64,000 bases of DNA from an uncultured Bacteroidales bacterium (GTDB lineage Bacteria > Bacteroidota > Bacteroidia > Bacteroidales > VadinHA17): contig CAVTPT010000004.1 of the NCBI GenBank assembly GCA_963736675.1, positions 448,815-512,814 of the forward strand, written 5' to 3'. Both the position numbers and the translations under genes were made by a program. Below the pieces are notes generated by a model. The model did no database searches, was not told the origin of the DNA, and was given only the letters and a program-made list of their open reading frames with translations. Shown here in pieces: positions 4,045 through 57,813 of this stretch (positions are counted from its first letter, which is position 1; each line of letters starts with the position of its first letter).

Positions 4045-6342
4045 TTATTTGCTCAGGGAAACATTATAAACTCTTGATTTTGTTACCGGTATCTCCTGTG
4101 ACTGGTAACCCTTCGCGCTGATAATAAGGATCTCTGATGACTGAGGTATCTCAAATTTATATTCACCTTTCTGATTAGTGAGGTTCTCGGCCGCTGTATC
4201 CTTAACCCTTATCGATGCATATGCAATCGGCTGTCCGGTACCGGAATCCGTAACAACACCCTTGATCTCATTGGGATTGATGCCTTTTTTGACTGAGGCT
4301 ATATAGGTCTGGACATAGCTCAGCGAGTTTTTTGCTGCCTGGTTCGAAGGATCAATTGCAAGTATTTTGTTATAGTAATCATTTGATTTTGCCAGGTACG
4401 CCAGCTTCCCTTCAAGGGTTTTTTCAAGGCCGGCAGCAGAAATTTCAAGACTTCCCAGACCGTTGTATCCGGTTATTTTATAATCCTTGTTATTGGGAGT
4501 GAGATTGACCATCCGGTTATAATAATTCCTGGCAGCCGTACTATTGCCGTTTTCCATATGATAGTAGGCGAGATAGGAAAATGATTCCATCATTTCACCT
4601 GCATTTTTTATTGAGTCAGTTTTGGCCACATCCACAATTTTTTCAAACTTGGGTCTTGCAAGTCCTAATTTGGCGTCAGGGTCCATTTGTGAATATACAC
4701 GGGCAATATAAACATGAGCAGGCAGATACCCTGGTGTTTTCTTTGTAACAATGCTGAAGATTGAGTCGGCACTCTTATATACGCCTGAGTTATAGTAAGC
4801 TCTTCCAACCTGCATATATTCAGCAGTGTTATCCTCTTTTGAAGGATCTATAAGTTTTCCCCACGATTTTGCAGCTCCGTCATACCTTCTGAAGTTATAA
4901 TAACTTACTGCCATCTCGTTTAATATCGACTTTTCATAGGCAGTCAGCGGAGATGTATCACCGGGTTTCCGGTCGAAATTCAGTGCCTTTTCATATTCTT
5001 TAAAGCCTCTGTCAATTTCAGCTTCGGCTTTTGCCACAGCATTTGTGAGATCAGCTACCTTACCTGTCAGTTCATCAAGGCTCGCTTTGTTCTTAGCTTT
5101 TTCTGCTGCTGTCGAACTGTTATATCTCGATTTCTCCCTGTCAAGCTGCTGCTTAAGAGTAGCAAGTTCATCAACCTTTTTTGGATAATCCTGATTTATT
5201 GTCAGAAGTATCCTGGCCATGTAGTGGTAGTCTTTTTTAATTATACTCTCAGGCGCTAATGTTTTGAACAGAGTCTCCATATACGAAAGGGCCTTGTTAT
5301 AATCGGGATTCTCTTTTTCAAAACTTGAATAGCCGGCGATACGGTTCAGGTATGTCCTTGACTTATCAACTACAAGGATCTCTTCAACAGAGGTAATGAC
5401 TTCTTCGTAATCCTTTGCATAGAAAAGGGAGGTCACATATCTTATTTTAGCTGGTATATTACCTGCTGTGAGTTCAAGATACTTTTTGTAATTCTCCTTT
5501 GAGAGTTCAAGCCTGCGGGCCTGCCAGTAAAGCTGGCCAAGCTCCCTGTAAGCAGGTGCATACGAAGGATCGAGACTTATTGCCTCCTCAAAGAACGGGA
5601 TAGCCTGCTGCAATACCTTGGCCCTGACATACACATAACCGATCTTCATATTGGCTGTCGGCGACTTGGGATCATAGTACTGAGCCATGTTATAGTTCTT
5701 AATGGCGTTCGATCCGTCTGAAATAATCATATAAATGTCACCGGCTATCAGAAAAATATCAGGATTTTTCGAATCGATAGTCATAGCCTTCCTTATTAAT
5801 GGCAATGCCAGTGAAGTATCGACGCTGTTATCCTTGATATAAGATTCAGCGATCTTGGCCAGAATAAATGCATAATCACGGGCAGGAGGGCTCATTTTTT
5901 TGATATTCTTATAGGGCAGTAAAAAACTTTTGGCTTTTTCCCTCATCGCATTGGCCGTATTGTTATCTCCAAGATAGGAGGCAACCTTTGCCAGCCCTAT
6001 ATAGTTCAAAGGCTCATTAGGATTGGTATCGACTCCTTTCTGATAAATATCTTTTGCTTCTTTCGTTGCTACAGTCAGTGAATTAGATATTGTATCGGCA
6101 AAATAGTTGAGAAGATAATTCTCTCCGTAATAAAAGTAATTTTTTGCGTTGGCAGGTTCTTTCTGTATTAGTTGCAGATAAATTTCCTGGGCTTTATCAT
6201 ACTGTTCGCTTTTTGTCAGAAGTATTCCGTTGCTCAGGTCCTGGGCCTGAAGATTACCGCTCAGCAAAACAGAAATTAATACTGCCAGCATAAAAACCGG
6301 ACTTAAAATTGAACGTTTCATAGCTTTCTTATTTGATATCAA
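4045..6342 (-). CDS. secreted TPR-repeat protein with C-terminal CarboxypepD_reg-like beta-sandwich
   Basis: Signal peptide (FMLAVLISVLLSGNLQAQ). Many TPR-like units (AxxYYxxG / A..Y..LG patterns). The C-terminus GVVTDSGTGQPIAYASIRV...GEYKFEI...ISAKGY is typical of carboxypeptidase-regulatory-like domains. Confidence 0.7.
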   Translation of the reverse strand: MISNKKAMKRSILSPVFMLAVLISVLLSGNLQAQDLSNGILLTKSEQYDKAQEIYLQLIQKEPANAKNYFYYGENYLLNYFADTISNSLTVATKEAKDIYQKGVDTNPNEPLNYIGLAKVASYLGDNNTANAMREKAKSFLLPYKNIKKMSPPARDYAFILAKIAESYIKDNSVDTSLALPLIRKAMTIDSKNPDIFLIAGDIYMIISDGSNAIKNYNMAQYYDPKSPTANMKIGYVYVRAKVLQQAIPFFEEAISLDPSYAPAYRELGQLYWQARRLELSKENYKKYLELTAGNIPAKIRYVTSLFYAKDYEEVITSVEEILVVDKSRTYLNRIAGYSSFEKENPDYNKALSYMETLFKTLAPESIIKKDYHYMARILLTINQDYPKKVDELATLKQQLDREKSRYNSSTAAEKAKNKASLDELTGKVADLTNAVAKAEAEIDRGFKEYEKALNFDRKPGDTSPLTAYEKSILNEMAVSYYNFRRYDGAAKSWGKLIDPSKEDNTAEYMQVGRAYYNSGVYKSADSIFSIVTKKTPGYLPAHVYIARVYSQMDPDAKLGLARPKFEKIVDVAKTDSIKNAGEMMESFSYLAYYHMENGNSTAARNYYNRMVNLTPNNKDYKITGYNGLGSLEISAAGLEKTLEGKLAYLAKSNDYYNKILAIDPSNQAAKNSLSYVQTYIASVKKGINPNEIKGVVTDSGTGQPIAYASIRVKDTAAENLTNQKGEYKFEIPQSSEILIISAKGYQSQEIPVTKSRVYNVSLSK

Positions 6343-9177: not shown

Positions 9178-9565
9178 GCAGCTGGCTGTTCCATCGTCCA
9201 GGTTTTCCGTCAGGAAAAGCTGGAAGGAAAGTCCGGGCAACACAGAGCACCATACTTCCTAACGGGAAGATATCCGCGAGGGTATTGTAATGTAACAGAA
9301 AATGACCTCCCCGGTATAAAAGCCGGGGGAAGGGTGAAAAGGTGAGGTAAGAGCTCACCGGTCGTGATGGCGACATTGCGAGCCGTACATCTTATGGGTT
9401 GAAAGGCCATGTATACCGGCGCACTGGGCTGCTCGTCCAATGCCGGGGGGTAGGCTGTATGATCCGGTCAGCAATGACCGGACGAGATAAATGATGGAAA
9501 ACGGTCCCAATTTCTCTTGCAGAAGCCGGGACCGTGACAGAATCCGGCTTACAGGCCAGCTGCTT
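9178..9565 (+). ncRNA. rnpB: RNase P RNA, bacterial type A
   Basis: Conserved P4 halves GGAAAGTCCGGGC (9226-9238) and ACAGAATCCGGCTTA (9537-9551). Perfect 9-bp P1 closure GCAGCTGGC (9178-9186) / GCCAGCTGC (9555-9563). A terminator follows. Confidence 0.9.
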
Positions 9566-9573
9566 ACAAATAA

Positions 9574-32920: not shown

Positions 32921-33002
32921 ATTGTTTTTTATTTGGTTATTTCTTAAACTTCATTCATCCCTCAGCGCCTCCACCGGGTTCCTCGTGGCTGCTCTCCGTT
33001 TA

Positions 33003-33146
33003 CCACCCCTAAATCCCCTGAAGGGGACTTTTAAATCTACCTTAAACCACATTTTCAATTCTTTTAACTACTTCTTTTATATTATTTACAGTCCATTCCA
33101 TTGTTGAATTCCTTAGTTCTTAAAGCCCCTTCAGGGGTTTGGGGTG
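33003..33146. mobile_element. MITE-like module, copy 1 (imperfect terminal inverted repeats flanking a 96-bp AT-rich core)
   Basis: The left arm CCACCCCTAAATCCCCTGAAGGGGAC (33003-33028) is the inverted complement, with three 1-nt gaps, of the right arm GCCCCTTCAGGGGTTTGGGGTG (33125-33146). Each arm also contains its own CCCC-N4-GGGG mini-palindrome. Confidence 0.3.
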
Positions 33147-33202
33147 AAAATTACTCATACCTCAGCGCCTCCACCGGATTTCGTGTAGCAGCTTTCCGTT
33201 TA

Positions 33203-33346
33203 CCACCCCTAAATCCCCTGAAGGGGACTTTTAACTCTACCTTAAACCACATTTTCAATTCTTTCAACTGCTTCTTTTATATTATTTTCAATCCATTCCA
33301 TTGTTAAATTCCTTAGTTCTTAAAGCCCCTTCAGGGGTTTGGGGTG
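33203..33346. mobile_element. MITE-like module, copy 2
   Basis: Same architecture 200 bp downstream (arms 33203-33228 and 33325-33346), with a few substitutions relative to copy 1. Confidence 0.3.
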
Positions 33347-33350
33347 AAAA

Positions 33351-35711
33351 CTATTCATACCTCAGCGCCTCCACCGGATTTCGTGTAGCAGCTTTCCAGC
33401 TTTGCCAGCTAACCGTTAACAATGCAATTCCCAATGCCAGTACTCCAGCCAAAGCGAAGATCCACCAACTTAAATTGGTTTTGTAAGCAAAACTTTCAAG
33501 CCATTTATCCATGACATACCATGCAACGGGTGTGGCAATTACAAAAGCAATAGCTACCCATTTCACAAAGTCGCGGTTGAGCATAGTCATTACTTCCGAA
33601 ATACGGGCGCCGTTCACTTTACGGATACCAATTTCCTTTACCCTGCGCTGGCAGGCAAACAGCGAAACTGCTAAAATTCCCAGGCTGCAAATCACAATTG
33701 CACAAATCGCAAACAGCGAGAAGGTGCGCCGAAACTGTACTTCCGACTGGTACAGGTTTCCGATGGCCTGATCCAGAAAGCTGATTTCGACCGGGAAAGA
33801 AGGTGACAACCCTGTGGCGCTTTTACTGATGTCCTGGATGGCGTAGTTCAGGTCCGAATAATCCGATGTTTGAAGGTTGACAAGGCAGTAGGAGGCAAAC
33901 GGTTCATTCCGGATGGCCAAAGGCAAAATCGGATTGTTTACGGGCTTATAATGAAAATCTTTGATCACTCCAATGATTTCACAAATAGTGCCGTTCATGC
34001 TGAAAAATTTAACGCTCAGTGGGTTCTGCAGTTTGTTCTCGCGGACAAAACTTTCGTTCACCACTACTTTATTGGCATCAGTCGAAAGATCTTCAGAATA
34101 AAGGTGCCCTGAGATCAGTTGCAGTCCCATTGTTTCAAAAAAGCTGGCATCAGCGCCAAAGGTGTCGTAATTCAGTTGTCTGGGTTCGCCGGCGGCATCC
34201 ATTTTGGTTTCCCAGTACGAAAGTGGCTGACCGGGATAATATTGTGAAAATGAGATTTTTCCTACTGAAGGGTTTTCAAGAAGCATTTTCTTCAGAACAT
34301 CTCTTTTGCCCATCAGTTCGGGAGTTAATCTGATTCCGATGACATTCTCCTGATTGATGCCCAGATTACTGCTTCCGAAGTTGACCTGTTTTTGTACCAA
34401 AACCGTGAAAGCTATTAAAACGATAGCAATGGTGAACTGGACAGTTACCAGAATTCCGCTTGAAACCGAATTATTGGTGCGTGGTTTAACAGAATGTCGG
34501 AGGTTGTCAATAGGGTCTGACGACGAAATGCGAAGGGCCGGAATGATACTGAAAATTAAACTCAACGCCAGAGTTGCGGCTACGGCTATTCCCATAAATC
34601 CGTACGAATAAATCAGTTGCTGATTAAACAGAATTCCGGTGTAGCTGCAAATGTATGGGGTAAAAATTCGGATCAGCAGGATAGCAAAAAACAATGCGAT
34701 CAGGAAAAACAGGAATGCTTCGGAAATAACCTGGAAAAGCAATGCTGCGCGGCTTGCCCCATTGACCTTCATTACCCCGGTTTGCCTGATTCGTTCCAGC
34801 CATTGCGAAGCTGAAATGTTGATGAAGTTGACCAACGCTATAATCAGCACCAATGCCGCTACCAGCAATAAAATCATCACTTTTTTCTGATCGCCGGAAT
34901 GCAGGTAATTACCGTTGAACAAGGTGAATTGAGAAAAGTAAAGCTTTTTGAGTGGCGTTAATTGGGCTGCCGATTCTTTAGTGCGCATTTCGTTTGGGAA
35001 AAGAGCTGCAATATTTTTAGCCGTTTCATCGGGGTTAATTCCCTCTTTCAGCAGAACAAAAGTCTGGAAAAGACAGAAGGGCCACACTTTAAACTCGTTT
35101 TCGTCGGGCATTACCACTTTTCGGGTGGCCATCGATGTCAGCGCACTGAACGAAAGGCTCGAATTGGCCTCCGGATCTTCAACCACCGCTTTAACGGTGA
35201 GTTCTTTTTCGTTGTTCAGCTTCATGGTTTTACCAGTCGCAGGTTCTTTCCCGAAAAGCTTTTCCGACAAGGTTTGGGTGATTACCACGGTCATTGGCTC
35301 TTTCAGCGCCAGTTCCGGATCGCCTTCAACCACCTTGTAAGTAAAGAGTTTGAAGAAATCTTCGTCGGCAAAAATCAGGTCCGAAGTGATGGGATCTTTA
35401 CCTGTAACCTGAAAAACCGGGGCTTCCCACGTTCCGGCAACGCGGACGGTCGATTCCACACCTGGCACACTCAGGTCGATATTGTCTTTCAGCACTCCCG
35501 GGGTATAAATCTGAGGTAGATTATTCGCATCAGAATACAGAAAAACGCGCTTGCCGTTTTTGTGGTAATTGTCAGTAGTCAGTTCGCTGTACGAATACAC
35601 CGAAAGGATGATGACCAGGGCCAGACTAATGCCAAGTCCAAGTAAATTAATCAGGTTAGTTACCGGTTTTCGGACAAAATTTCTATAAGTCGATTTGAAT
35701 ATGTTTTTCAT
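33351..35711 (-). CDS. FtsX/MacB-type ABC transporter permease (paralog 1)
   Basis: 786 aa. N-terminal TM, large periplasmic domain, FtsX 4-TM module, second periplasmic domain, and a second FtsX module (GIRKVNGA...). Confidence 0.85.
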   Translation of the reverse strand: MKNIFKSTYRNFVRKPVTNLINLLGLGISLALVIILSVYSYSELTTDNYHKNGKRVFLYSDANNLPQIYTPGVLKDNIDLSVPGVESTVRVAGTWEAPVFQVTGKDPITSDLIFADEDFFKLFTYKVVEGDPELALKEPMTVVITQTLSEKLFGKEPATGKTMKLNNEKELTVKAVVEDPEANSSLSFSALTSMATRKVVMPDENEFKVWPFCLFQTFVLLKEGINPDETAKNIAALFPNEMRTKESAAQLTPLKKLYFSQFTLFNGNYLHSGDQKKVMILLLVAALVLIIALVNFINISASQWLERIRQTGVMKVNGASRAALLFQVISEAFLFFLIALFFAILLIRIFTPYICSYTGILFNQQLIYSYGFMGIAVAATLALSLIFSIIPALRISSSDPIDNLRHSVKPRTNNSVSSGILVTVQFTIAIVLIAFTVLVQKQVNFGSSNLGINQENVIGIRLTPELMGKRDVLKKMLLENPSVGKISFSQYYPGQPLSYWETKMDAAGEPRQLNYDTFGADASFFETMGLQLISGHLYSEDLSTDANKVVVNESFVRENKLQNPLSVKFFSMNGTICEIIGVIKDFHYKPVNNPILPLAIRNEPFASYCLVNLQTSDYSDLNYAIQDISKSATGLSPSFPVEISFLDQAIGNLYQSEVQFRRTFSLFAICAIVICSLGILAVSLFACQRRVKEIGIRKVNGARISEVMTMLNRDFVKWVAIAFVIATPVAWYVMDKWLESFAYKTNLSWWIFALAGVLALGIALLTVSWQSWKAATRNPVEALRYE

Positions 35712-38552: not shown

Positions 38553-38625
38553 TGATCCAGCTGGGGCTCGAACCCAGGACCCCATCCTTAAAAGGGATGT
38601 GCTCTACCAACTGAGCTACTGAATC
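38553..38625 (-). tRNA. tRNA-Lys (anticodon UUU)
   Basis: The reverse complement is GATTCAGTAGCTCAGTTGGTAGAGCACATCCCTTTTAAGGATGGGGTCCTGGGTTCGAGCCCCAGCTGGATCA. It folds as a cloverleaf with anticodon loop CTTTTAA and a GGTTCGAGCC T-arm. No CCA is encoded. Confidence 0.9.
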
Positions 38626-41972: not shown

Positions 41973-44147
41973 ATGGATCAGGGGAAGATACAAAAAGGGT
42001 ACAGGGCTTTACTCAGGGCGGCTAAAGGATCTGTCTCTCCATCAGAATACAGGATGATCAGGAGAGCAGTTGATTTGTCGGTGGAAGCATGCGGGGATAA
42101 AACGATCATTACCGGCGAGCCGGAGATCCTTCATGCTCTTTCGGTGGCGAGAATAATAGCCGGAGAGATGGGACTTGGCCTCACCTCAATAATAACGGCT
42201 CTTCTGCACGATTCGTACGACAGACTGGGAGTGACGCCTGCCGGGCTTGAAAAGGAGTTCGGAAAACTTGTTGTTGACATTCTGAGGGGTTTCTCGCGTA
42301 TCACAGGAATCAATTCTTCACAATCTTCATATCAGTCTGAGAACTTCAGAAAACTTTTACTCAGCCTCGCTGACGACGTAAGGGTAATTCTTATCAAGCT
42401 TGTTGAACGGCTTGAGTATATGAGGAACCTCGACAATGCACCTGAAAAGGAGCGCTTGCCTCTTGCTTCGGAGACCTATTTCCTTTATGCGCCCCTGGCG
42501 CACCGTCTCGGCTTTTACAATATAAAATCGGAGATGGAGGATCTTGCCGTCAAATACCTTGAGCCTGAACAATATAATTATGTGGAATGCCGGCTGAAGC
42601 AGACAACGGCATCTAGGAATAAACTTATCCGCGAATTTTCAGCTCCGCTGAATGATATGCTTGAAAAGCAGGGATTTAAATTCGTTGTTAAAAGCCGGAC
42701 AAAATCAATTCATTCCATAATGCTGAAAATGAAAAAGCAGGGTGTTGATTTTGACGAAGTGTACGACCTGTTTGCCGTCCGGATAATCATCGATTCATTA
42801 AGTGAAAATGAAAAATCCGATTGCTGGAGAGCCTACTCCATAGTTACGGATCTTTACCAGCCAAATCCAAGCAGGCTGAGGGACTGGATATCGGTACCAA
42901 AATCGAATGGTTATGAATCACTACACACTACTGTCGTAGGGCCACGGGGCAAGTGGGTTGAGGTACAGATTAGATCGGCAAGGATGGACGAGATAGCTGA
43001 AAAGGGACTTGCAGCTCATTTCAAATACAAAGGGATAAAGGGAGAGGGAGGGCTGGATACATGGCTTTCAAAGATGAGGGAGATCCTCGAATCGTCTGAA
43101 AAAGAAGATAGTGCCTTTCTCGACCAGGTAAGGTCAGGTCTCTATACCGACGAAGTGTTTGTTTTTACTCCCAAGGGCGATCTTCGACAGTTGCCTGCAG
43201 GAGCGACGGTGCTCGACTTCGCATTCGATATTCACACTGCTGTGGGTGCAACATGTGTCGGAGGAAAGGTAAATGGTAAAAATGTCACAATAAGATATGT
43301 CCTTCAGAACGGCGATCATGTTGATATTATAAGGTCAAAGAACCAGAAACCTAAACAGGACTGGCTCTCATTTGTTGTGACAAACAAGGCCAGGACCAAG
43401 ATCAAACTCGCCCTGAATGAGGAGAAGAATAAGGCTGCCGCCGAGGGCAAGGAGATGCTGATGCGCCGGTTGAAAAACTGGAAGATTGCATATGGGGATA
43501 CCTTAATACAAAGGCTGATAAATCATTACAACTTCAAGACAGCACAGGACCTCTATTTTCTTATCGGGACAGGCAAGATTGAGCTTTTAGAGATAAAGGA
43601 GGTCCTTCAGAAAGATGAGACGGAGGAGCAGAGCAGCATACCTGCATCCATGCCCGAGAAGGAGATTAAGGAGACCCAGGATACACAATACTCCGATTTT
43701 CTGATAATCGAGAACAGGGTGGAAGGACTGGATTACAGGCTCTCAAAGTGCTGCAATCCTGTTTTTGGTGACAGCATCTTCGGATTCGTTACTATTTCGG
43801 AAGGTATCAAAATCCACAGGAAGGGGTGCCCTAATGCTCATAATATGATGGCAAGGTATCCTTACAGGGTTATCTCAGCCCGGTGGACACAATCAAAGAC
43901 AAGCCCGTCGTTTGTTACTTCTGTAAAGATCACTGGCATAGAGGAGATAGGAATGGTTAACAGGATTGCTGATGTTCTTGCTGTTAACAATGTTGTAATC
44001 AGGAGTTTCAATTACAGGATGGACGATGGTATGTTTGAAGGTATACTTAATATCATGGTTCCCAATAACGATGTCCTGTATGGGGTTCTGAGGAAGATTG
44101 TTTCGATAAAAGGTGTGTTGAAAGCCTCCAGGATGATAAGCGACTAA
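41973..44147 (+). CDS. bifunctional RelA/SpoT-family (p)ppGpp synthetase/hydrolase
   Basis: HD domain (ALLHD), synthetase domain (KSIHSIMLKMKK..., YESLHTTV, EVQIRS), TGS (VFVFTPKGD...LPAGATVLDFA) and a C-terminal ACT-like region. Confidence 0.9.
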   Translation: MDQGKIQKGYRALLRAAKGSVSPSEYRMIRRAVDLSVEACGDKTIITGEPEILHALSVARIIAGEMGLGLTSIITALLHDSYDRLGVTPAGLEKEFGKLVVDILRGFSRITGINSSQSSYQSENFRKLLLSLADDVRVILIKLVERLEYMRNLDNAPEKERLPLASETYFLYAPLAHRLGFYNIKSEMEDLAVKYLEPEQYNYVECRLKQTTASRNKLIREFSAPLNDMLEKQGFKFVVKSRTKSIHSIMLKMKKQGVDFDEVYDLFAVRIIIDSLSENEKSDCWRAYSIVTDLYQPNPSRLRDWISVPKSNGYESLHTTVVGPRGKWVEVQIRSARMDEIAEKGLAAHFKYKGIKGEGGLDTWLSKMREILESSEKEDSAFLDQVRSGLYTDEVFVFTPKGDLRQLPAGATVLDFAFDIHTAVGATCVGGKVNGKNVTIRYVLQNGDHVDIIRSKNQKPKQDWLSFVVTNKARTKIKLALNEEKNKAAAEGKEMLMRRLKNWKIAYGDTLIQRLINHYNFKTAQDLYFLIGTGKIELLEIKEVLQKDETEEQSSIPASMPEKEIKETQDTQYSDFLIIENRVEGLDYRLSKCCNPVFGDSIFGFVTISEGIKIHRKGCPNAHNMMARYPYRVISARWTQSKTSPSFVTSVKITGIEEIGMVNRIADVLAVNNVVIRSFNYRMDDGMFEGILNIMVPNNDVLYGVLRKIVSIKGVLKASRMISD

Positions 44148-47083
44148 TATCTTTTGTCAGGTTTAACCGGCAGCCTGGCCAGTTTTTCCGCTTCAAGCGA
44201 CGGGAAACCGAATTCCTGCACAATTTTACCAAGAATGAGATATGTACCGCTCCCTTTAAACGGGTAGTTTTTAAGTGACTGAGAGAAATGTGTGGTATCG
44301 AAATAGTTACCTTCATTATCTATGAAACAACCGAAATTCATCCATTCCCCTTTTATTGTCCTGATATATTTGATTGTAACCAGGTGTCCCACCATTCTCA
44401 CTTTTTTCCCGGTGTACCGGCTCATTTCACGCGCTGTTATTTCTCCCCTGAATGAAGTTTCAAGCATGTCGAACCATGTTATTGAAACCGGAAATCCGAA
44501 CAGCTCTATTTCATCATAGGCATGCTCCAGCGCACCCTGATCAAGTTCGGGTAAAGAAAAGTTTTTTACCGGAGGGGAGAAGAGCGGGCGTATATTCACC
44601 GGTTTGCTTTTGTTCATCAACATATGAGCCTCCCACATAAGAACCGCCTTCTTTTTTCCGGTAAACCTGAATGCCCCGGCCCGTATAAGTATCAGTACCT
44701 GCTCCAGTCCGGGACATACCCTGGTGATAAAGTCGTTCAGATCGCTGAAATCACCTTCTTTCCTGCGGAACTCTTCGATCGACATTGCCAGATCGTGCTC
44801 AATACTAAGGATATGTATAAACCCAAGGTAGATCTCATTTCCGTAAATGGTTGTTTTATAAGTACTTTTGTTGACACATGGCAGCCGTATCTCAGCTCCG
44901 TATCTTTTTGCTTCATGGACATACACCCATGTTCTGTAAAACCCGCCAAAATTGTTAATGACAGCTACCATGAACTCAACAGGGAAGTGTGCCTTGAGGT
45001 AAAGGCTTTGAAAGCTTTCGACAGCATACGATGCGGAATGTGCCTTTGAGAATGAGTAACCGGCAAAAGATTCGATCTGCCGCCACACCTCCCTGATAAT
45101 TTCCTCGCTATATCCCTTTTCCCTGCAGTTTGTAAAGTACCGGTCAACAATTCGCTGCATCTCCTGTTTCGATCTGTATTTCCCGCTCATTGCCCGGCGG
45201 AGGGTGTCGGCATCGGCAAGGTCGAGTCCTGCAAAATGATGGCACACCATCAGAACATCCTCCTGGTAAACCATTACCCCAAAAGTCTCTTCCAGCTGCT
45301 CTTTCATTACCGGATGTATATATTCAAATTTTCCCGGATTATGGAACCTGTAAATATATTCCTTCATCATACCCGAGCGTGCAACACCTGGCCTGATAAT
45401 TGAGCTGGCTGCAACAAGTGTCGGGTAATCTTCACATTGCAGTTTCTGCAGAAGTCCCCTCATTGAAGGGCTCTCAATATAAAAGCATCCTTTTGTTTCG
45501 CCGGTCTTCAGATACTCTTTTACTTTTGGATCGTTTCTGAACTTTTGAATTGCGTGAACATCAACATCCACTGAACGGTTACGCATTATTATTTCAGCAC
45601 TTTCCCTGATATGTCCGATCCCGCGCTGACTGAGTATATCGAGTTTTTCAAAACCGATATCTTCAGCTGTATACATATCCCACTGTGTTACAGGAAAGCC
45701 TTTTGGAGGCATGTCAAGAGCAGTATAGCAGGTTACCGGCTCTTCGGAAATAAGTATCCCGCCGGAATGGATGCTTCTCATATTGGGAAAATCGGCAATC
45801 CGCATGCCTGTTGAAAAGATGATATCGGATATCTCGTTCCTGTTTGCTCCTGCCGATGGATTTTCAATCAGGGCATCAATATCTTCCTTTGGCAATCCGT
45901 GAATTTTTCCCAGCTCACGTACAATCGATTTGCCCCTGAAGGTGCTTATTGTCCCCAGCAGGGCGGTATGCCTGACTCCGTATCTTTTGAAGATGTAATC
46001 AATAACCTCGTCACGCTCTTTCCACGAATAATCAATGTCAAAGTCAGGAGGGCTGCTTCGTTTGGGGTTTATGAACCTCTCGAAGTAAAGATTCAGGTCA
46101 ATAGGGTCAACATTGGTGATTTTCAGGCAATAAGCAACTATGGAGTTTGCTCCGCTACCCCGTCCCACGTGATAAAATCCCCTTGACATGGAATATCTGA
46201 CAATATCCCAGGTGATAAGGAAATATGCTGAAAAACCAAGCTTGTCGATGATATCAAGTTCGTGTCTTATCTTTTTTTTTGCTTCAACGTTCTGTTTCCC
46301 GTACCTGTATGCCATCCCGTCCCAGGCCAGTTTTTCGAGAAGGAGTCTGTCGTCATACCTGCTTGCAGAAAACACCTTTTTGTTTTTGAGGTTTTCACGG
46401 TCAAAATTGAGGGAGCAGTCATCAAGCAACCTTTGGGTGTTATCTTTTATATCAGGAAAGCCGTCCAGCATAAGACCACACTCTGCGGGGGACCTGAAAA
46501 ACTCATCGTCATCAGCATATTGCCCTGGTTTAAGATGGCTCAGCAGTATATTGTTGTCGACAGCCCTGAGGCTTTTGTGAATAAAGAGATCGCCGGTTGC
46601 TGAGAATGTGACAGGTGCAAGTAATACCATTGAGTTCCTGCTTACCGAAGTGAGTGTCAGGAGCCGGTTTATTTCCCCGGGTTTGATCCCTATGCGCTCA
46701 TTTTCAAACAGTTTTCTTTCAGGGATCTTTTTCAGGGAATATATTATGTAAGCGTCGGAGAACTGAGGGGCCGGAAAGGGGAGAGGGCTCTTTTCAAAGT
46801 TATGTTTTGAAAGAAACTCATTTAACTCTCTTAATCCATTGTTATTACGGGCAATGCCAATATATTCGGGCTGGTTTTCATTCCGGAATTCAATACCACC
46901 CAGAGGCCGTATGTTGTTTTTAGCGCATTCTCCTGCAAATTCGGGAATTGCAGTTGAGTTATTGATATCGGTGAGAGCAATGGCCACGGCTCCGGCCGTC
47001 CCGGCGTTCTGCACGAGCTGTTCCACTGACATCATTCCGTAGCGCAGGCTGTAATATGAATGGCAGTTCAGGTACATTGCCAC
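44144..47083 (-). CDS. dnaE2: DNA polymerase III alpha-like, error-prone DnaE2-type
   Basis: 979 aa with an N-terminal PHP motif (LNCHSYYSLRYG) and pol III alpha core motifs (FDIDY, GYSFSKAHSASYA). It is translationally coupled to the upstream Y-family polymerase gene. Confidence 0.8.
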   Translation of the reverse strand: MAMYLNCHSYYSLRYGMMSVEQLVQNAGTAGAVAIALTDINNSTAIPEFAGECAKNNIRPLGGIEFRNENQPEYIGIARNNNGLRELNEFLSKHNFEKSPLPFPAPQFSDAYIIYSLKKIPERKLFENERIGIKPGEINRLLTLTSVSRNSMVLLAPVTFSATGDLFIHKSLRAVDNNILLSHLKPGQYADDDEFFRSPAECGLMLDGFPDIKDNTQRLLDDCSLNFDRENLKNKKVFSASRYDDRLLLEKLAWDGMAYRYGKQNVEAKKKIRHELDIIDKLGFSAYFLITWDIVRYSMSRGFYHVGRGSGANSIVAYCLKITNVDPIDLNLYFERFINPKRSSPPDFDIDYSWKERDEVIDYIFKRYGVRHTALLGTISTFRGKSIVRELGKIHGLPKEDIDALIENPSAGANRNEISDIIFSTGMRIADFPNMRSIHSGGILISEEPVTCYTALDMPPKGFPVTQWDMYTAEDIGFEKLDILSQRGIGHIRESAEIIMRNRSVDVDVHAIQKFRNDPKVKEYLKTGETKGCFYIESPSMRGLLQKLQCEDYPTLVAASSIIRPGVARSGMMKEYIYRFHNPGKFEYIHPVMKEQLEETFGVMVYQEDVLMVCHHFAGLDLADADTLRRAMSGKYRSKQEMQRIVDRYFTNCREKGYSEEIIREVWRQIESFAGYSFSKAHSASYAVESFQSLYLKAHFPVEFMVAVINNFGGFYRTWVYVHEAKRYGAEIRLPCVNKSTYKTTIYGNEIYLGFIHILSIEHDLAMSIEEFRRKEGDFSDLNDFITRVCPGLEQVLILIRAGAFRFTGKKKAVLMWEAHMLMNKSKPVNIRPLFSPPVKNFSLPELDQGALEHAYDEIELFGFPVSITWFDMLETSFRGEITAREMSRYTGKKVRMVGHLVTIKYIRTIKGEWMNFGCFIDNEGNYFDTTHFSQSLKNYPFKGSGTYLILGKIVQEFGFPSLEAEKLARLPVKPDKRY

Positions 47084-48330
47084 ACTCTTTTAAGCCTCTC
47101 TTCCATCATTTTTTGCTCATTAATAGCATTTTCGAGCTGTTTAATGGCTTTTTCCTCCCTTTCAGCAGTGGTCATTACTCCGGATGCCCTGTGTACCGCA
47201 TCGCGTCCGAAACGTCTTCTTATCTTATCCATTGCCATATAGAGACTTACTTTCTCCGGAGTATCGTCGAACATATCAAGTTGCTGGACTCCCCTTACCA
47301 GATGGCTGAACCGGACCCCTATAAGCCTTATGAGCATGCGCCGTTGGTAGAGCCTGCTGAATAGCTCTTTGGCAATATCAGCAAGAACATGGTCAAAGGA
47401 TGTGTAGGGGATCCGTTTCTGCAGGGTATGTGTATCAAAGTTTGAGTACCTTATCTTTACCGTGATGCACGATGTAAGCTTCTCCTGTCTTCTGAGCTCG
47501 TATGCTGTCTTTTCGACCATGCCTGACAGTAACTGATTCAGCCTGGCAATATCGGTAGTGTCTTTATCAAATGTGTGCTCGGTGCTTATTGATTTCCGTT
47601 CCTGGTAACTTATTACCGGCGTTGAGTCTATCCCGTTGGCTCTCTTCCATATTTCGATCCCGTTTTTACCCATGAGCTTTTCAAGCATCTCTGCCGGTAT
47701 GTTCCTCAGGGTATATATTGTCGCAATACCCATTGAACGCAGGGTATGATAGGTTTTCTGCCCTATCATCGGGATCTTGCTTATTGACAGCGGATCGAGA
47801 AAGGGGAGGACTATCTCTTTCCCTACCTCTATTTCCCCGTTTGGTTTTGCTTCGCCTGTTGCGATCTTTGAAACGGTTTTATTGACTGACAGACCGATGG
47901 ATATCGGCAATCCGGTCTCTCTTATGATAAATTGCCGCAGTTCATGCGACCATTTGTAACATCCGTGAAACCGGTCCATGCCGGTAATATCTACGTAATG
48001 CTCATCAATGGAGGCCTTTTCGTACAACGGCGACCGTCCGGCAATTATCTCTGTCACGATGTCCGAATAGTTGGTGTACATCTCCATGTCGCCCCTTATT
48101 ACTATTGCATCCGGACACATGGCCCTTGCCATCTTCATTGGCATGGCTGAGCTTACACCGTATTTCCTTGCCTCATAACTGCAACTCGATACCACGCCAC
48201 GATCGGACATACCACCGATAATGACCGGCTTGCCGTTAAGCCTGCTGTTTTTAAGCCTCTCTACCGACACGAAAAAGGTGTCAAGGTCAAGGTGAAGTAC
48301 AGATCTTTCTATATTTCCTGCAATAAACAT
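47068..48330 (-). CDS. dinB: Y-family DNA polymerase (DinB/Pol IV-like, catalytic residues intact)
   Basis: HLDLDTFFVSVE (catalytic Asp motif), SCSYEARKYGV, SIDEHYVDIT (Asp-Glu pair), and little-finger region. Overlaps the dnaE2 start by 16 nt. Confidence 0.85.
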   Translation of the reverse strand: MFIAGNIERSVLHLDLDTFFVSVERLKNSRLNGKPVIIGGMSDRGVVSSCSYEARKYGVSSAMPMKMARAMCPDAIVIRGDMEMYTNYSDIVTEIIAGRSPLYEKASIDEHYVDITGMDRFHGCYKWSHELRQFIIRETGLPISIGLSVNKTVSKIATGEAKPNGEIEVGKEIVLPFLDPLSISKIPMIGQKTYHTLRSMGIATIYTLRNIPAEMLEKLMGKNGIEIWKRANGIDSTPVISYQERKSISTEHTFDKDTTDIARLNQLLSGMVEKTAYELRRQEKLTSCITVKIRYSNFDTHTLQKRIPYTSFDHVLADIAKELFSRLYQRRMLIRLIGVRFSHLVRGVQQLDMFDDTPEKVSLYMAMDKIRRRFGRDAVHRASGVMTTAEREEKAIKQLENAINEQKMMEERLKRVWQCT

Positions 48331-48458
48331 ATCCCGGATTTTAAATACCCTGGAATACTTAGTGTTAACTATCTCCTTAATTTTAAGTACTCCACAATTT
48401 GACTCAGTTCAACTTTTTTTCTGATTAATTTGGTTGTTTCACTTTTTTATTCTATTTT

Positions 48459-48498
48459 TGATTAGAAATTAATCAATATTATGATTACAATATAATCA
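48459..48498. promoter_or_regulatory. two TGATTA-N5-TAATCA palindromes (candidate operators of the XRE/S24 repressor)
   Basis: TGATTAGAAATTAATCA at 48459-48475 and TGATTACAATATAATCA at 48482-48498. Centres are 23 bp apart. The second site ends 11 nt before the repressor ATG. An isolated TGATTA half-site lies at 48422-48427. Confidence 0.45.
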
Positions 48499-48509
48499 AT
48501 TTTTTTAAT

Positions 48510-49337
48510 ATGTACTTCGCATCGAACATAAAATTTTTAAGAAAAAGGAGGGGCAGGACACAGGACGATGTTGCTGCAGCCCTTAACCTGAAGCGTTCAA
48601 CACTGAGCGGTTATGAGAATGGTGTTGCGCAGCCGGGGATTGAGGTACTTGTCTCATTTTCAGGATATTTCAATATGTCAATTGACACAATGCTGAAACT
48701 TGACATGATGAAGCTTTCAGAAAGCCAGCTTGGAGAACTCGAACGTGGATACGATGCCTATGTGAGAGGCAGTAACCTCAGGGTGCTTACCACAACCGTG
48801 AATTCTGAAAACAAAGAAAATATTGAACTTGTACCAGAAAAGGCCAAAGCCGGATACGCAACAGGCTATGCCGATCCGGAATATATCGGGGAGCTTCCCG
48901 TGTTTAACCTCCCTTTCCTTTCGGATAAAAGAAAATACAGAACTTTTCAGCTGAAAGGCGACTCAATGCTGCCGATACCCGAAGGATCGTGGGTTACAGG
49001 TGAGTTTGTTCAGGACTGGCTTGAAATTATAAACGGACAGGCATATGTGGTTTTTACAATTAACGACGGAATAGTATTTAAAGTAGTTGAAAACAACCTT
49101 ATTAAAGACGGAAAACTGGTACTCTATTCACTTAATCCCATATATGAACCTTACGAGGTCCATGTGACCGAAGTCAAAGAAGTATGGAAATTTGTCAATT
49201 ATATAAGCAGCGAACTTCCCGATCCTGTTCTTCCCGAAAAACAGATAATCCAGTCTATCGCTGTTATGAAAAATGACCTCGAAAAGATTAAAACCAGGCT
49301 GGGAAGGGATATCTCCGACATAAAGGAGGTAAACTGA
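48510..49337 (+). CDS. XRE-HTH / S24 peptidase repressor (LexA- or CI-like)
   Basis: N-terminal HTH_3 (IKFLRKRRGRTQDDVAAALNLKRSTLSGYENG). C-terminal S24 domain with the Ser motif (LKGDSMLP) and a downstream Lys (VFKVV). There is an Ala-Gly (KAKAGY) in the linker. Confidence 0.85.
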   Translation: MYFASNIKFLRKRRGRTQDDVAAALNLKRSTLSGYENGVAQPGIEVLVSFSGYFNMSIDTMLKLDMMKLSESQLGELERGYDAYVRGSNLRVLTTTVNSENKENIELVPEKAKAGYATGYADPEYIGELPVFNLPFLSDKRKYRTFQLKGDSMLPIPEGSWVTGEFVQDWLEIINGQAYVVFTINDGIVFKVVENNLIKDGKLVLYSLNPIYEPYEVHVTEVKEVWKFVNYISSELPDPVLPEKQIIQSIAVMKNDLEKIKTRLGRDISDIKEVN

Positions 49338-54665: not shown

Positions 54666-56303
54666 ATGAATGAGCAATATTCGGTTAGTCCGGGCGGGGA
54701 AAAATTCCCTTTGCCAAAGCCTGAGGATTACAAAAATGAATTTAAGAACCTGAAAGAAAGAGTTGATCAGGAGAGAACCAAAAACCGCGAGATTGTTGTT
54801 GTCATGGGTGTGGGATTTGTCGGCGCCGTGATGGCTGCGATAGTAGCCGATACTGTTGATGCGGATGGTCAGCCCTCTAAATTTGTAATTGGTATGCAGC
54901 GTCCGAGTGTACGAAGCTACTGGAAGATCCCGATGTTGAACAGGGGGACGTCGCCTGTTAAGGCAGAAGATCCGGAAGTCGATCCCATGATTGCACGGTG
55001 TGTTATTGAAAAGAAGACACTGATAGCCACCTATACATACGATGTGCTTAAGCTGGCTGATGTTGTTGTGGTTGATGTTCAGTGCGATTATATAAAGGAG
55101 GATCTTGGGAATGTGAGGAATGGCCAGGCTGACATGGAAGCACTGGAAGCTTCGTTGCATGTGATTGCTGAGCATATTATGCCCGAAGCCCTGGTTCTTA
55201 TCGAGACAACTGTGGCTCCGGGTACTACCGAACAGGTTGCATATCCGATAATGAAAAAAGTTTTCAGAAGCAGGGGTATTGAATCAGATCCGCTGCTCGC
55301 TCACAGCTATGAGAGAGTGATGCCGGGACGTAACTATGTTGCCAGTATCCGTGATTTCTGGAGAGTATGCAGCGGGATAAATGAGGAGGCTAAGAACCGG
55401 GTGGTAAAATTCCTTAATGAAGTACTTAATACTGACAAGTATCCGCTGACAGTGATGGACAGGCCGATTGAATCGGAGACTGCCAAAATAGTCGAAAACA
55501 GTTACCGGGCTACTATCCTTGCATTTCTGGATGAATGGAGCCTCTATGCAGAACGAAATGGAGTCGACCTTATAAAAGTCATAAAAGCAATTAAAGTCAG
55601 ACCCACACACAGCAATATTATTTTCCCGGGACCGGGAGTCGGAGGATACTGTCTTCCGAAAGATGGCGGCCTTGGCGTTTGGGCATATAAGCATATACTT
55701 GGTTTTGAGGATGATATTTTCAAGATAACACCTCTGGCAATTGATATAAATGACACCCGTGGTCTGCATGTCGGACAGCTTGTAAGAGATGCGCTTCGCA
55801 ACATGGGAAGACCGATTGCAGCTGCCGATGTACTGGTTCTTGGCGCTGCTTACAGAGAAGATGTGGGCGATACACGGTACAGCGGTTCTGAAATTGTCAT
55901 CAGGAAACTTGCCGAGATGGGCGCCGAAATAAAAGTCCATGATCCTTATGTTGAACATTGGTGGGAATTTGAGCAGCAGGACACTTATCCGGCAGCCGGT
56001 GAGAGTAAATCGAGATTTTTCCGTAACCAGGAGAAGTTGCAGGAGATAAGAATTGAACCGGATCTTGATAAGGCTCTTTACGATGCAGATGCCGTGGTAC
56101 TTGCCGTTCCTCACAAAATTTACCTGGATCTGAATCCTGATGAGGTTCTGAAATCAATCGGCAAACCGGCGGCAATAATAGATTGTTTTGGAATTCTGTC
56201 TGACGATAAGATCAGGCGCTATTTTCAGCTGGGTTGTGAAGTAAAAGGTCTCGGACGGGGACATATTCAGAGGATAAAGGAAGAGATACGGCATATTTCC
56301 TGA
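54666..56303 (+). CDS. nucleotide-sugar dehydrogenase (UDP-glucose/GDP-mannose dehydrogenase family), long form
   Basis: Rossmann VVVMGVGFVGAVMA. Catalytic-Cys context GPGVGGYCLPKD. C-terminal UDPG_MGDP_dh_C-like region (VLGAAYREDVGDTRYS). At 545 aa it is longer than the usual family members. Confidence 0.85.
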   Translation: MNEQYSVSPGGEKFPLPKPEDYKNEFKNLKERVDQERTKNREIVVVMGVGFVGAVMAAIVADTVDADGQPSKFVIGMQRPSVRSYWKIPMLNRGTSPVKAEDPEVDPMIARCVIEKKTLIATYTYDVLKLADVVVVDVQCDYIKEDLGNVRNGQADMEALEASLHVIAEHIMPEALVLIETTVAPGTTEQVAYPIMKKVFRSRGIESDPLLAHSYERVMPGRNYVASIRDFWRVCSGINEEAKNRVVKFLNEVLNTDKYPLTVMDRPIESETAKIVENSYRATILAFLDEWSLYAERNGVDLIKVIKAIKVRPTHSNIIFPGPGVGGYCLPKDGGLGVWAYKHILGFEDDIFKITPLAIDINDTRGLHVGQLVRDALRNMGRPIAAADVLVLGAAYREDVGDTRYSGSEIVIRKLAEMGAEIKVHDPYVEHWWEFEQQDTYPAAGESKSRFFRNQEKLQEIRIEPDLDKALYDADAVVLAVPHKIYLDLNPDEVLKSIGKPAAIIDCFGILSDDKIRRYFQLGCEVKGLGRGHIQRIKEEIRHIS

Positions 56304-56310
56304 GAATAAC

Positions 56311-56900
56311 TCAATTAGCCGCAAATTCCTTTGACATAAAATCGTGCCGATATAGGTCTGTTACACAGACACTATATCTGATTTTATGTCAATCAGCAGA
56401 GCTGAGCGGAATTTACTGGAAAAGCAATTCAATTAGTCGCAAATTCCTTTGACATAAAATCGTGCCGATATAGGTCTGTTACACAGACACTATATCTGAT
56501 TTTATGTCAATCAGCAAAGCTGAGCGGAATTTGCTGGGAAAGCAATTCAATTAGTCGCAAATTCCTTTGACATAAAATCGTTGCCGATATAGGTCTGTTA
56601 CACAGACACTATATCTTATTTTATGTCAATCAGCGGAGCTGAGCGGAATTTGCCGGGAAAGCAATTCAATTAGCCGCAAATTCCTTTGACATAAAATCGT
56701 GCCGATATAGGTCTGTTACACAGACACTATATCTGATTTTATGTCAATCAGCAGAGCTGAGCGGAATTTGCTGGGGAAAGCAATTCAATTAGCCGCAAAT
56801 TCCTTTGACATAAAATCGTTGCCGATATAGGTCTGTTACACAGACACTATATCTGATTTTATGTCAATCAGCGGAGCTGAACGGAATTTGCTGGAAAAAC
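56311..56900. repeat. five tandem 118/119-bp units, each an extended imperfect palindrome
   Basis: Units start at 56311, 56429, 56547, 56666 and 56785 (TCAATTAG landmark), with only about 7 variable positions per unit. No ORF of 60 aa or more on either strand between 56304 and 57012. Confidence 0.9.
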
Positions 56901-57012
56901 CCTATAATTAATATTATGTCAAATAGAAAATTTTTAGGTTATTATCAGAAGTAAATATGACCGGAAGTTACACTGCCCTATCGGGGATAAATTGAAAACT
57001 GACGGATTCCTG

Positions 57013-57813
57013 TTATTGATTAAGGAAATACCCTATTTCGTCGGAGTTTGTCACATCGAGCATCGGCAGACTTGGCAAAACCAGAAGATCCATATCAGCA
57101 TTTTCAATTGCTGCATGAACTGATGTTCTGATAAATTTATATCCGTTCCGGAGTGCAGCCGCTTTAATATCTTCATCTCCTGCTCCATCTCCATAAGGTA
57201 AAGCAAGGACTGAAACCGGTACCGGTGAATGTAAATCAATAATTGCTTTTGATTCCCTCAGCTCATAATCAAGAAATGAATTATACTCTGTCTCGCTGCT
57301 GAAGCTGGTCCTGCTGGCATAAAGGTACGGATGCGAGAAAGTATGGGATCCGAATTTGAAAGGGTTAATTCCTCCAGGTAATGTATAGTAGCTCATATCC
57401 TCAATTTCCTGCCAGCTTAGGAATGAATTCTGCCCGATCTTATAGGTCCAGAGAAAAAATGTAGCTCTGTATTTAAACTCAAGCAACAAAGGTTTTGCCT
57501 GGGTATACCAGGAATGGTCACCATCGTCGAAGGTAATTATTGCGCTGTTACCAGGAGGCATCTTACCTGAAACCGAAATTTCTTCAAGATCATTGAAATC
57601 AATTACATTAATATTATTCCTTTTCAGATATTCCATATCTTCCCTGAAATCAGTCACGCTGCGTTCATATGTATTCCCTGCCTCTCCGGTTGTCAGCCGG
57701 TGATACATAAGAATAATGATCTTCCCCGGAGGTTCAGGAGTTATTTTCTCCTTTTCTGTACAGCCATATACCAGTAATGTAAAGAATATCAGATATATAA
57801 GGAGAAGTCTCAT
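57013..57813 (-). CDS. polysaccharide deacetylase-family lipoprotein
   Basis: Lipobox LLVYGC. NodB-like motifs (ITFDDGD, SHTFSHP). Confidence 0.8.
   Translation of the reverse strand: MRLLLIYLIFFTLLVYGCTEKEKITPEPPGKIIILMYHRLTTGEAGNTYERSVTDFREDMEYLKRNNINVIDFNDLEEISVSGKMPPGNSAIITFDDGDHSWYTQAKPLLLEFKYRATFFLWTYKIGQNSFLSWQEIEDMSYYTLPGGINPFKFGSHTFSHPYLYASRTSFSSETEYNSFLDYELRESKAIIDLHSPVPVSVLALPYGDGAGDEDIKAAALRNGYKFIRTSVHAAIENADMDLLVLPSLPMLDVTNSDEIGYFLNQ

Follow-up and report, generated by a model that had tools for sequence, protein, structure and literature searches.

A conserved gene-less hairpin module on the XerC-arm flank of a candidate dif site in Bacteroidales, possibly a folded mimic of the Xer site

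We analysed a stretch of 64,000 nucleotides from an uncultured Bacteroidales bacterium (hereafter the window; NCBI GenBank assembly GCA_963736675.1, contig CAVTPT010000004.1, positions 448,815 to 512,814 of the forward strand), in which a tandem array of a palindromic, gene-less unit lies directly beside a candidate dif site. The array occupies positions 56311–56898 on the plus strand. Tandem Repeats Finder gave a period of 118, 5.0 copies and 95% matches, together with a 237-bp higher-order period. The array starts at the eighth base past the TGA stop codon (56301–56303) of a UDP-glucose/GDP-mannose dehydrogenase family gene (54666–56303, plus strand; Pfam PF03720, PF00984 and PF03721). On the other side stands a convergent polysaccharide deacetylase gene (57013–57813, minus strand; Pfam PF01522), beyond which are a TPR protein gene and then gyrA; the two flanking genes are context and lie outside the element. 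No open reading frame (ORF) of at least 60 aa was found inside the array, and none between the units. An earlier note on this DNA had described five tandem 118/119-bp units, each a multi-stem palindrome, starting about 8 nt past the dehydrogenase stop and free of ORFs of 60 aa or more, and all of this was confirmed, the units by Tandem Repeats Finder and the palindromes by fold z-scores. It had also placed the array between convergent polysaccharide-type genes, which is correct, and had let it fill the whole gap, which is not: the dif candidate at 56897–56924 plus 88 further bases follow. This dif site directly beside the array, which is the key to the element, had been missed.

The unit cores, counted from the 5′ strand to the 3′ strand of the outer stem P1, are all on the plus strand. 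Unit 1 lies at 56321–56416 (motif coordinates and nhmmer match), unit 2 at 56439–56534 (folds, motif coordinates and a covariance-model score of 114 bits), unit 3 at 56557–56653 and unit 4 at 56676–56771 (both by unit alignment and motif coordinates), and unit 5, the dif-proximal one, at 56795–56891 (motif coordinates and a covariance-model score of 124.9 bits). Five bases separate the end of the unit 5 core from dif. The mean column identity of the five aligned units was 95%, and the 22-nt linkers between units are alike in all of them. Among about ten differences, two strike paired positions and are uncompensated, namely a G>T in the 3′ strand of P2 in unit 3, which also has an extra T in the bulge, and a G>A in P1 of unit 1; therefore the variation within the array says little on constraint. 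The bulge reads GTTGCC in unit 5 and GTGCC in units 1, 2 and 4. That the bulge variants alternate, together with the 237-bp period, indicates a recent duplication of a two-unit block. Exact-protein look-ups for other assemblies of the organism gave a single 2.2-kb short-read contig, which breaks off at the edge of the array, and no record of the dehydrogenase; the count of five copies comes from one assembly. Profile and covariance-model searches revealed no other copy of the unit elsewhere in the window.

Folded as RNA, one unit reached −45.9 kcal/mol (z = −8.4 against shuffled sequence), and folded as DNA it reached −30.8 kcal/mol (z = −8.7); the opposite strand folds about equally well, also as DNA. 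The predicted stems of the window units are P1 (9 bp), P2 (TTGACATAAAATC(G)/(T)GATTTTATGTCAA, 13–14 bp), P3 (GATATAG/CTATATC, 7 bp), the apical stem P4 (GTCTGT/ACAGAC, 6 bp) and the side hairpin P5 (TCAGC-NNN-GCTGA, 5 bp). All stems named in the earlier note are present, and most are slightly longer than it stated. In unit 5, the 5′ strand of P1, GCAAATTCC (56795–56803), pairs with the 3′ strand GGAATTTGC (56883–56891). The 5′ strand of P2, TTGACATAAAATC (56805–56817), is the reverse complement of a XerD-arm-like word plus AATC, and its positions are 97–98% paired across species. It is followed by the unpaired bulge GTTGCC (56818–56823; columns 37–42 of alignment A2), the 5′ strand of P3, GATATAG (56824–56830), and the variable apical stem-loop P4, GTCTGT-TAC-ACAGAC (56831–56845). 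On the way back come the 3′ strand of P3, CTATATC (56847–56853), which would take the XerC-arm position if the arm is read as dif-like, the 3′ strand of P2, GATTTTATGTCAA (56855–56867), which includes TTATGTCAA, the first 9 nt of the dif XerD arm, and the side hairpin P5, TCAGC-GGA-GCTGA (56868–56880).

The dif candidate reads AAACCCTATAA-TTAATA-TTATGTCAAAT on the plus strand. By comparison with predicted dif sites it is composed of a XerC-binding arm AAACCCTATAA (56897–56907), a 6-bp central region TTAATA (56908–56913) and a XerD-binding arm TTATGTCAAAT (56914–56924), that is, two 11-bp arms around a 6-bp centre with partial dyad symmetry. Compared with the dif predictions of Kono et al. (PMC3025954, supplementary file 2), it matched those of Robiginitalea and Lysinibacillus at 22/28 positions and those of Gramella, Pedobacter and B. 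subtilis at 20–21/28. It is the unique best match to predicted dif on both strands of the 64 kb, the next best reaching 19. The site is intergenic, between convergent genes; its XerC arm is conserved in all related loci, and the whole 28-mer is kept in >140 loci with differing left-hand genes. The identical 28-mer was found downstream of the TPR–gyrA pair in many Bacteroidota whose gyrA is 55–70% identical to that of the window. Judging by this similarity, uniqueness within 64 kb and conservation, the 28-mer at 56897–56924 is probably the working dif.

The order dif–TPR protein–gyrA was observed across Bacteroidota with gyrA 55–75% identical (among the compared loci, which carry L numbers, for example L025, L030, L040, L049, L060, L066, L071 and L115); therefore dif stayed by the gyrA operon over deep divergence. 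In two loci the site appears interrupted: in L012 (2184–2234) the XerD arm follows the XerC arm and centre only after a 23-nt insert, and in L020 (~2812–2840) the XerD arm is replaced by unrelated sequence. Both may be scars or junctions of dif-using elements. We also noted that the 5′ arm of the last window unit is complementary to dif itself (56804–56813 with 56914–56923, TTTGACATAA/TTATGTCAAA, 10 bp), with a second complementarity at 56826–56831 and 56901–56906 (TATAGG/CCTATA, 6 bp; ~70 nt apart). An alternative fold that pairs the last unit with the top strand of the real dif, in the manner of CTXphi attP1/attP2, is therefore possible.

The unit is not confined to this genome. A hairpin-arm scan of one genome per species, in which exact arm sequences were required and ~0.75 chance matches were expected, gave 20 loci, one per genome, 18 of them in metagenome-assembled genomes (MAGs) of Bacteroidales/Bacteroidota. 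In these 18 MAG loci the unit lies in the interval syntenic with that of the window and has the same orientation; the exact dif core stands just downstream in 14/18, and variant or interrupted dif-like sites in 4/18. Across loci the copy number ranges from 1 to 5. An independent metagenome scan was anchored on the dif sequence alone, with units called by profile and covariance-model search. It gave 120 loci, ~28 of them with units, all on the strand of dif, on the XerC-arm side and at most 54 nt from dif; no unit was found on the XerD side of dif among the 120. In total, beyond the window, the module is present at dif in ~45 other Bacteroidales/Bacteroidota loci. Its position beside dif is unchanged where the flanking genes are unrelated (L033, L081, L105 and L130), and the window holds no unit elsewhere; therefore the association is with dif and not with polysaccharide genes. 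Dispersed single copies, which the earlier note proposed to look for, were not found, each genome having one dif-adjoining locus; the array is locus-specific, and the view of the note that it is neither a CRISPR array nor a REP (repetitive extragenic palindromic) element was borne out. The hairpin arms had 0 matches in IMG/VR, BLAST against phage and plasmid records gave no match to the unit, and the IMG/VR loci L021–L024, which share the dif of the window, contained no units; nothing pointed to an extrachromosomal form. We found nothing in the literature on the element, its literal sequences or dif-adjacent hairpins in Bacteroidetes, and the module is previously undescribed.

Some of these IMG/VR contigs have a layout of their own. 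L021 and L022 have the same dif plus an inverted dif-like site ~130 nt upstream, and L024 has the same dif plus a tight inverted XerD-arm pair further upstream, in each case without the hairpin unit. Such layouts are what one would expect where a CTX-type integrated element ends.

The comparison between species showed that the fold is under strong constraint. RNAalifold on 28 dif-proximal units recovered P1, P2, P3 and P5 independently, and the consensus is a three-way junction with P1 of 10 bp, P2 of 14 bp, a 4–6-nt bulge, P3 of 7 bp and a variable tip P4, P5 being located between P2 and the P1 3′ strand. In these 28 units 96.9% of the cells were paired, against 87.2% in column shuffles, and 20/35 pairs covaried, against 8.9 in shuffles; 0/500 shuffles matched the observed values, in a control that ignores phylogeny. 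Slid registers gave a pairing of 26–45% only. With 43 model-aligned units, the cells were 95.6% paired against 82.3% in column shuffles, and compensatory double changes were found in 23/35 pairs. All four testable helices covary strongly, including 9/10 pairs of P1 and all 4 pairs of P5. In P2, AAAATC/GATTTT changed together to AATTTC/GAAATT. In some lineages P3 GATATAG/CTATATC is replaced by GTTATCG/CGATAAC, GTTCCGG/CCGGAAC or GTTACGG/CCGCAAC with the pairing kept, and in P1 and P5, G-C is swapped for C-G or A-T between species. P4 varies in sequence and length among species and retains its pairing. In every case the bulge stands on the 5′ strand, with a near-invariant CC as its last bases; it is never removed into a perfect palindrome, which argues against a simple palindrome-correcting mutation as the cause. 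The parts that do not vary are the XerD-arm stem, the C-TGAT-N next to it, and the bulge together with the CC at its end. Between species, units are 95–97% identical where the neighbouring TPR proteins are 75–79% identical, and they persist where TPR identity falls to 30–40%. Thus the structural constraint suggested in the earlier note stands, by cross-species covariation in the homologous units, while the within-array differences it had brought forward do not carry it.

Two departures from the common fold were observed. In L135 (78–211) P5 is replaced by CCCGACATTTTATGTCGGG, the loop of which repeats the ACAT...TTATGT words of the main arm. The older units of L001, L002, L006, L010, L011, L012 and L016, distal to dif, contain an extra ~30-nt hairpin within the P2 3′ strand (GATTTTAC[...]AGATGTCAA), whose stem itself shows covariation from species to species (TCTGC/GCAGA, TCATC/GATGA, TCAGAT/ATCTGA and CTGCC/GGCAG).

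The long arm of the unit resembles dif. Its 3′ strand reads CTATAT-CTGATT-TTATGTCAA, which corresponds to a XerC-arm-like word, six bases and the first nine bases of the XerD arm. The right arms of the five units thus contain pseudo-dif 28-mers on the plus strand, at 56367–56394 (unit 1, AGACACTATAT-CTGATT-TTATGTCAATC), 56485–56512 (unit 2), 56604–56631 (unit 3), 56722–56749 (unit 4) and 56842–56869 (unit 5). They match the resident dif at 20/28 positions; on either strand of the window, the five best matches to dif other than itself are these arms. The 9-mer TTATGTCAA has 11 copies in the 64 kb, all within dif or unit arms, and the pattern CTATAW-N6-TTATGTHAA was found in the window in the units and dif only. 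The left arms carry the CTATAW and TTATGTHAA words on the minus strand at a spacing of N9–12. On the 3′ strand the six-base spacing is ungapped in 28/28 aligned units, and the length of the bulge varies. Modelled as a hairpin, the arm would present a duplex XerD arm, a half-paired, half-bulged centre and a second duplex at the place of the XerC arm. The idea in the earlier note that 13-bp arms are protein-binding sites was probably close to the mark, since the XerD-arm sequence of the neighbouring dif is present in them.

We tried to read the window linkers as decayed junctions of the type 'XerC arm + TTA'. The traces of XerC-arm-like sequence in the window were weak and ambiguous. This reading was suggestive in the window and in L020, and was rejected, the AT-rich near-palindrome also fitting an inverted reading.

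Words related to the XerD arm were also observed near dif outside the module. L075, without a hairpin unit, has at 355–653, on the XerC flank of its dif (711–734), 17.6 copies of a 17-nt repeat, ATTCTTATTTACAAACT, which agrees at 13/17 positions with the XerD arm plus flank in reverse complement. L066, likewise without the unit, has at 4299–4577, on the XerC flank of its dif (4589–4612), a 59-nt repeat in 4.7 copies, with CTATTTGTCCAA in it. Inverted XerD-arm-like words arrayed by dif may be a wider theme in Bacteroidota. In addition, L009 (~2423 and 2650), L014 (~2119 and 2444), L019 (~4125, 5399 and 5793) and L020 (~2362 and 2637) have isolated dif-like sites, inverted relative to dif and 0.1–1.8 kb upstream of the unit, in which the XerD arm (...AATAATATTATGTCAAAT) is intact and the XerC arm degenerate. 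Ordinary genes surround them (in L019 a permease gene and a shikimate-dehydrogenase-like gene), and they are reminiscent of XerD-only binding sites.

Our preferred explanation, to which we give an even chance, is that the array consists of five tandem copies of a conserved gene-less DNA module on the XerC-arm flank of dif, and that the module folds into a mimic of the Xer site. The DNA would become single-stranded on the lagging-strand template as forks reach dif, or would be extruded as a cruciform. Each module would then fold into a three-way junction closed by P1, whose long arm would copy dif as a hairpin with the XerD-arm stem TTATGTCAA, a centre, a second stem at the XerC-arm place and a variable tip. 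The 'central region' would have 6 nt on the 3′ strand opposite ~10–11 nt on the 5′ strand, half paired and with the 4–6-nt bulge. Host Xer recombinases would bind the folded arm, XerD at least and perhaps XerC. No productive exchange with dif would be expected, because the centres differ (CTGATT and TTAATA). In cis at dif, the module might load or retain Xer proteins, serve as a decoy for single-stranded DNA (ssDNA) elements integrating at dif, persist as a passenger by exploiting Xer binding, or act as a folded version of XerD-binding sites. The copy number would shift by unequal exchange between units. Both a host accessory and a selfish passenger would suit what we found, and we regard the module as either. 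More tentatively, and at somewhat less than even chance, we suggest that it is the first chromosomal counterpart of the folded-DNA sites of CTXphi and integrons, selected for structure and working through the Xer machinery at dif. As such it could be a cis element kept by the host for control of Xer loading, for protection of dif from ssDNA phages integrating there or, in the role of a folded XerD site, for SMC unloading; another possibility is that it is a Xer-exploiting element, gene-less and ~105 nt long, that is smaller than any known.

The closest known likeness is CTXphi, in which two dif-like sites, attP1 with a centre of 12 nt and attP2 with one of 7 nt, lie inverted ~90 nt apart and fold in ssDNA into a XerCD substrate (PMC3089051, PMC4246890). 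The module shares with CTXphi attP(+) two inverted dif-like sites, whose arms would pair in ssDNA to rebuild XerC-arm and XerD-arm duplexes, unequal centres (~10–11 and 6 nt, compared with 12 and 7 nt in CTXphi) with the centre part-unpaired, a location at dif and the common occurrence of tandem copies. It differs in being ~105 nt long and gene-less where the phage is ~7 kb, in arms ~20 nt rather than ~90 nt apart, and in its closure by the extra stem P1 with the side hairpin P5. It is also absent from the viral collections searched, and it stands intact outside the XerC arm with no split hybrid sites; its XerC-arm likeness is weak and its inheritance mostly vertical. The integron attC site, in which an unpaired spacer separates an R box from an L box and the terminal structure is variable (PMC5027507), is likewise an imperfect palindrome of similar size whose distal part is conserved in structure more than in sequence. 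Its order of proximal conserved box, one-strand unpaired spacer, second box and variable tip corresponds to P2, bulge, P3 and P4. In both, unpaired features make the two strands unequal, and tandem series stand beside a primary recombination site. However, the module words are TTGACATAA/TTATGTCAA and not RYYYAAC/GTTRRRY, GTT...AAC appearing only in P3 of some lineages, and the window contains no intI gene, attI site or cassette ORFs, the units being separated by 22-nt linkers instead of genes. Six-frame translation of the 64-kb window contained no tyrosine-recombinase box II signature. With miniature inverted-repeat transposable elements (MITEs), REP sequences and bacterial interspersed mosaic elements (BIMEs), and foldback elements, the module has in common that it is short, non-coding and palindromic, that P1 is like a terminal inverted repeat, and that it varies in copy number and in presence or absence among relatives. 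Unlike these, it occupies one locus per genome, at dif, is not dispersed and has no target-site duplication, and it is much longer than REP elements. It also differs from a CRISPR array, since its linkers are identical across units and there are no unique spacers. The cer/psi sites, too, have accessory DNA on the XerC side of the core site. Accessory DNA of this kind and the XerD/XDS (XerD-binding site) system, as cited in PMC11894783, resemble the module in having XerD-arm-like sequences near but outside dif; both act as duplex, with no known need of intrastrand pairing, whereas the helices of the module all covary.

Whether the folding molecule is DNA or RNA was considered in several ways. 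A structured non-coding RNA, made as a 3′ untranslated region or by read-through and acting as stabiliser, terminator or small RNA, with the proximity to dif reflecting conserved gene order only, would be in line with the very stable three-way-junction fold, in which every helix covaries and unpaired nucleotides are conserved as in many RNA motifs. It could also claim the conserved plus-strand G.U pair at the border of P2 and the bulge (27 G.U and 9 A.U among the 43 units) and the minus-strand orientation of the downstream gene in 28/31 loci, which makes read-through over dif into the units possible. However, among the 43 units double-sided changes outnumber one-sided ones by 179 to 22, and G.U-type cells amount to ~1% outside that one fixed column, even where A-T and G-C alternate often, G.U intermediates being nearly absent there. 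The unit had no match in Rfam 15 at the gathering score, and at E up to 10 only chance miRNA-type hairpins appeared. The Bacteroidetes promoter box TAnnTTTG (−7) was found upstream in 1/35 loci and on the other side in 2/35, at or below background. The upstream gene is co-oriented in only 23/32 loci and divergent in ~9/32, and in several loci canonical intrinsic terminators lie between the TPR gene and dif. An RNA would further explain neither the rank of the arms as the best matches to dif in the window nor the constant place of the module by dif as the flanking genes change. Because G.U-type pairs are rare and neither promoter nor Rfam match was found, DNA folding is more likely than RNA, and we think the RNA explanation unlikely; the small RNA or 3′ untranslated region array proposed in the earlier note is not supported, on the same findings. 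A neutral minisatellite, an assembly artefact or a generic palindrome barrier (an insulator or fork pause with no sequence-specific role) is highly improbable. The 95% identity of the five copies does imply recent amplification, the short-read contig does break at the array edge, and polymerases can stall at strong hairpins. Yet the copies differ by variants of their own, with an alternation of bulge type in the 237-bp period, a pattern not expected of an artefact; compensatory changes occur in ~45 loci and the module is more conserved than the adjacent protein; and neither a neutral sequence nor a generic barrier would preserve the arm sequences unchanged and hold the bulge side and the orientation constant.

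The remaining two rivals also use the Xer system. The units might form a duplex array of XerD-binding sites like the XDS at which, near the terminus of B. subtilis, SMC is unloaded by XerD; each unit would offer two inverted XerD arms, and the hairpin potential would be a by-product of paired half-sites. The XerD-arm word is indeed the most conserved part of the unit, and the isolated inverted XerD-arm sites upstream in L009, L014, L019 and L020, as well as the 17.6-copy repeat of L075, which is on the same side of dif, agree with such an array. Duplex binding, however, needs no pairing in P1, P4 and P5, yet these covary, and it explains neither the concerted AATC/GATT changes outside the XerD arm nor the conserved one-sided bulge; we consider it an unlikely account. 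Alternatively, the module might be a miniature mobile element exploiting Xer, either a gene-less IMEX (an integrative mobile element that exploits Xer) or a foldback MITE aimed at dif, repeatedly gained and lost and keeping its structure solely since propagation needs it. In its favour, presence or absence among close relatives breaks exactly at the outer edge of the XerC arm, and in relatives without the unit the gene stop codon is ~10–50 nt from dif. P1 resembles terminal inverted repeats; intact units, which end 4–6 bp outside the XerC arm, adjoin dif while decayed ones are further off. L014 has three unit types in series, each of which stands next to dif in other species, and the close hosts L009 and L011 have different unit types. 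Tandem arrays at dif are typical of IMEXs (PMC4246890), and Bacteroidetes microvirus proviruses are flanked by dif-like sites (PMC3091885). Against it stand the lack of any copy in IMG/VR, phage or plasmid collections, the single locus per genome, and the tracking of host divergence by unit divergence (Mantel r = 0.58 against TPR protein divergence, reached by 2/2000 permutations), the inheritance being mostly vertical. No target-site duplication was found at the unit junctions, and no helper genes are known. An origin by CTX-type integration was also tried and rejected, since it predicts a permuted unit with its right arm fused to dif and the units are intact outside the XerC arm. A mobile element of this kind therefore seems quite improbable to us, and the amplified MITE of the earlier note was not supported, given a single locus in each genome, the lack of target-site duplication and the absence of copies elsewhere.

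Several points weigh against the folded Xer-site mimic that we prefer. Only CTATA recalls the XerC arm, a weak likeness that is missing from lineages with a replaced P3; therefore XerC binding is doubtful. Nothing in dif, attP(+) or attC corresponds to P1 and P5. Where the resident dif has A at position 7, the XerD-like arm of the unit has C in 19/19 loci; where it has T, the unit arm has T in 6/8 loci, so that the correspondence is partial, and it is confounded by phylogeny. Close relatives with the same flanking genes lack the unit (L026, L048, L079, L120, L028 and L136), therefore the module is dispensable and not needed for dif function. Binding of Xer proteins to the folded unit is suggested by sequence resemblance and position, and the single-stranded state and any functional consequence of the module would follow from the same reading. 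When a terminus location of the 28-mer was looked for by GC-skew decomposition into transcription and replication terms, the replication term was small and showed no sign change, with only 7 kb of the window to the right of the site. Template-switch mutation can change both arms of a palindrome together without selection, alignment A3 was fitted to the structure model, and loci L001–L020 were selected by exact arm sequences. Finally, minus-strand read-through from the convergent gene is possible, although the folding molecule is probably DNA and not RNA.

Folded ssDNA substrates of tyrosine recombinases are known from two systems only, attC and CTX-type attP, and both are mobile. If our preferred explanation is true, folded recombinase sites would also exist as resident features of the chromosome, fixed beside dif across a bacterial clade. 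The module would then give a handle on how Bacteroidota organise Xer recombination, chromosome termination and SMC unloading, none of which has been studied there, on the use of dif by ssDNA phages such as microviruses in this phylum, and on a possible origin of integron-like or IMEX-like systems from Xer/dif. In practice, the array explains the short-read assembly breaks at this locus, and the module can serve as a marker of dif in Bacteroidales MAGs.

Some other features of the window were recorded. A second tandem repeat at 32955–33397, with a 200-bp period, 2.2 copies and 93% matches, contains CCCCTGAAGGGG palindromes; a 183-aa ORF lies on one side of it and the 3′ end of a MacB/FtsX-type permease gene on the other. 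A damage-inducible mutagenesis-type cassette at 44144–49337 is composed of a DnaE2-like Pol III alpha gene (44144–47083, minus strand), an ImuB/Y-family polymerase gene (47068–48330, minus strand) and a divergent gene for a LexA-like repressor with helix-turn-helix and peptidase S24 parts (48510–49337, plus strand). The sole Rfam matches of the window at the gathering score were RNase P RNA class A (9178–9567, plus strand, 247 bits) and one tRNA (38553–38625, minus strand).

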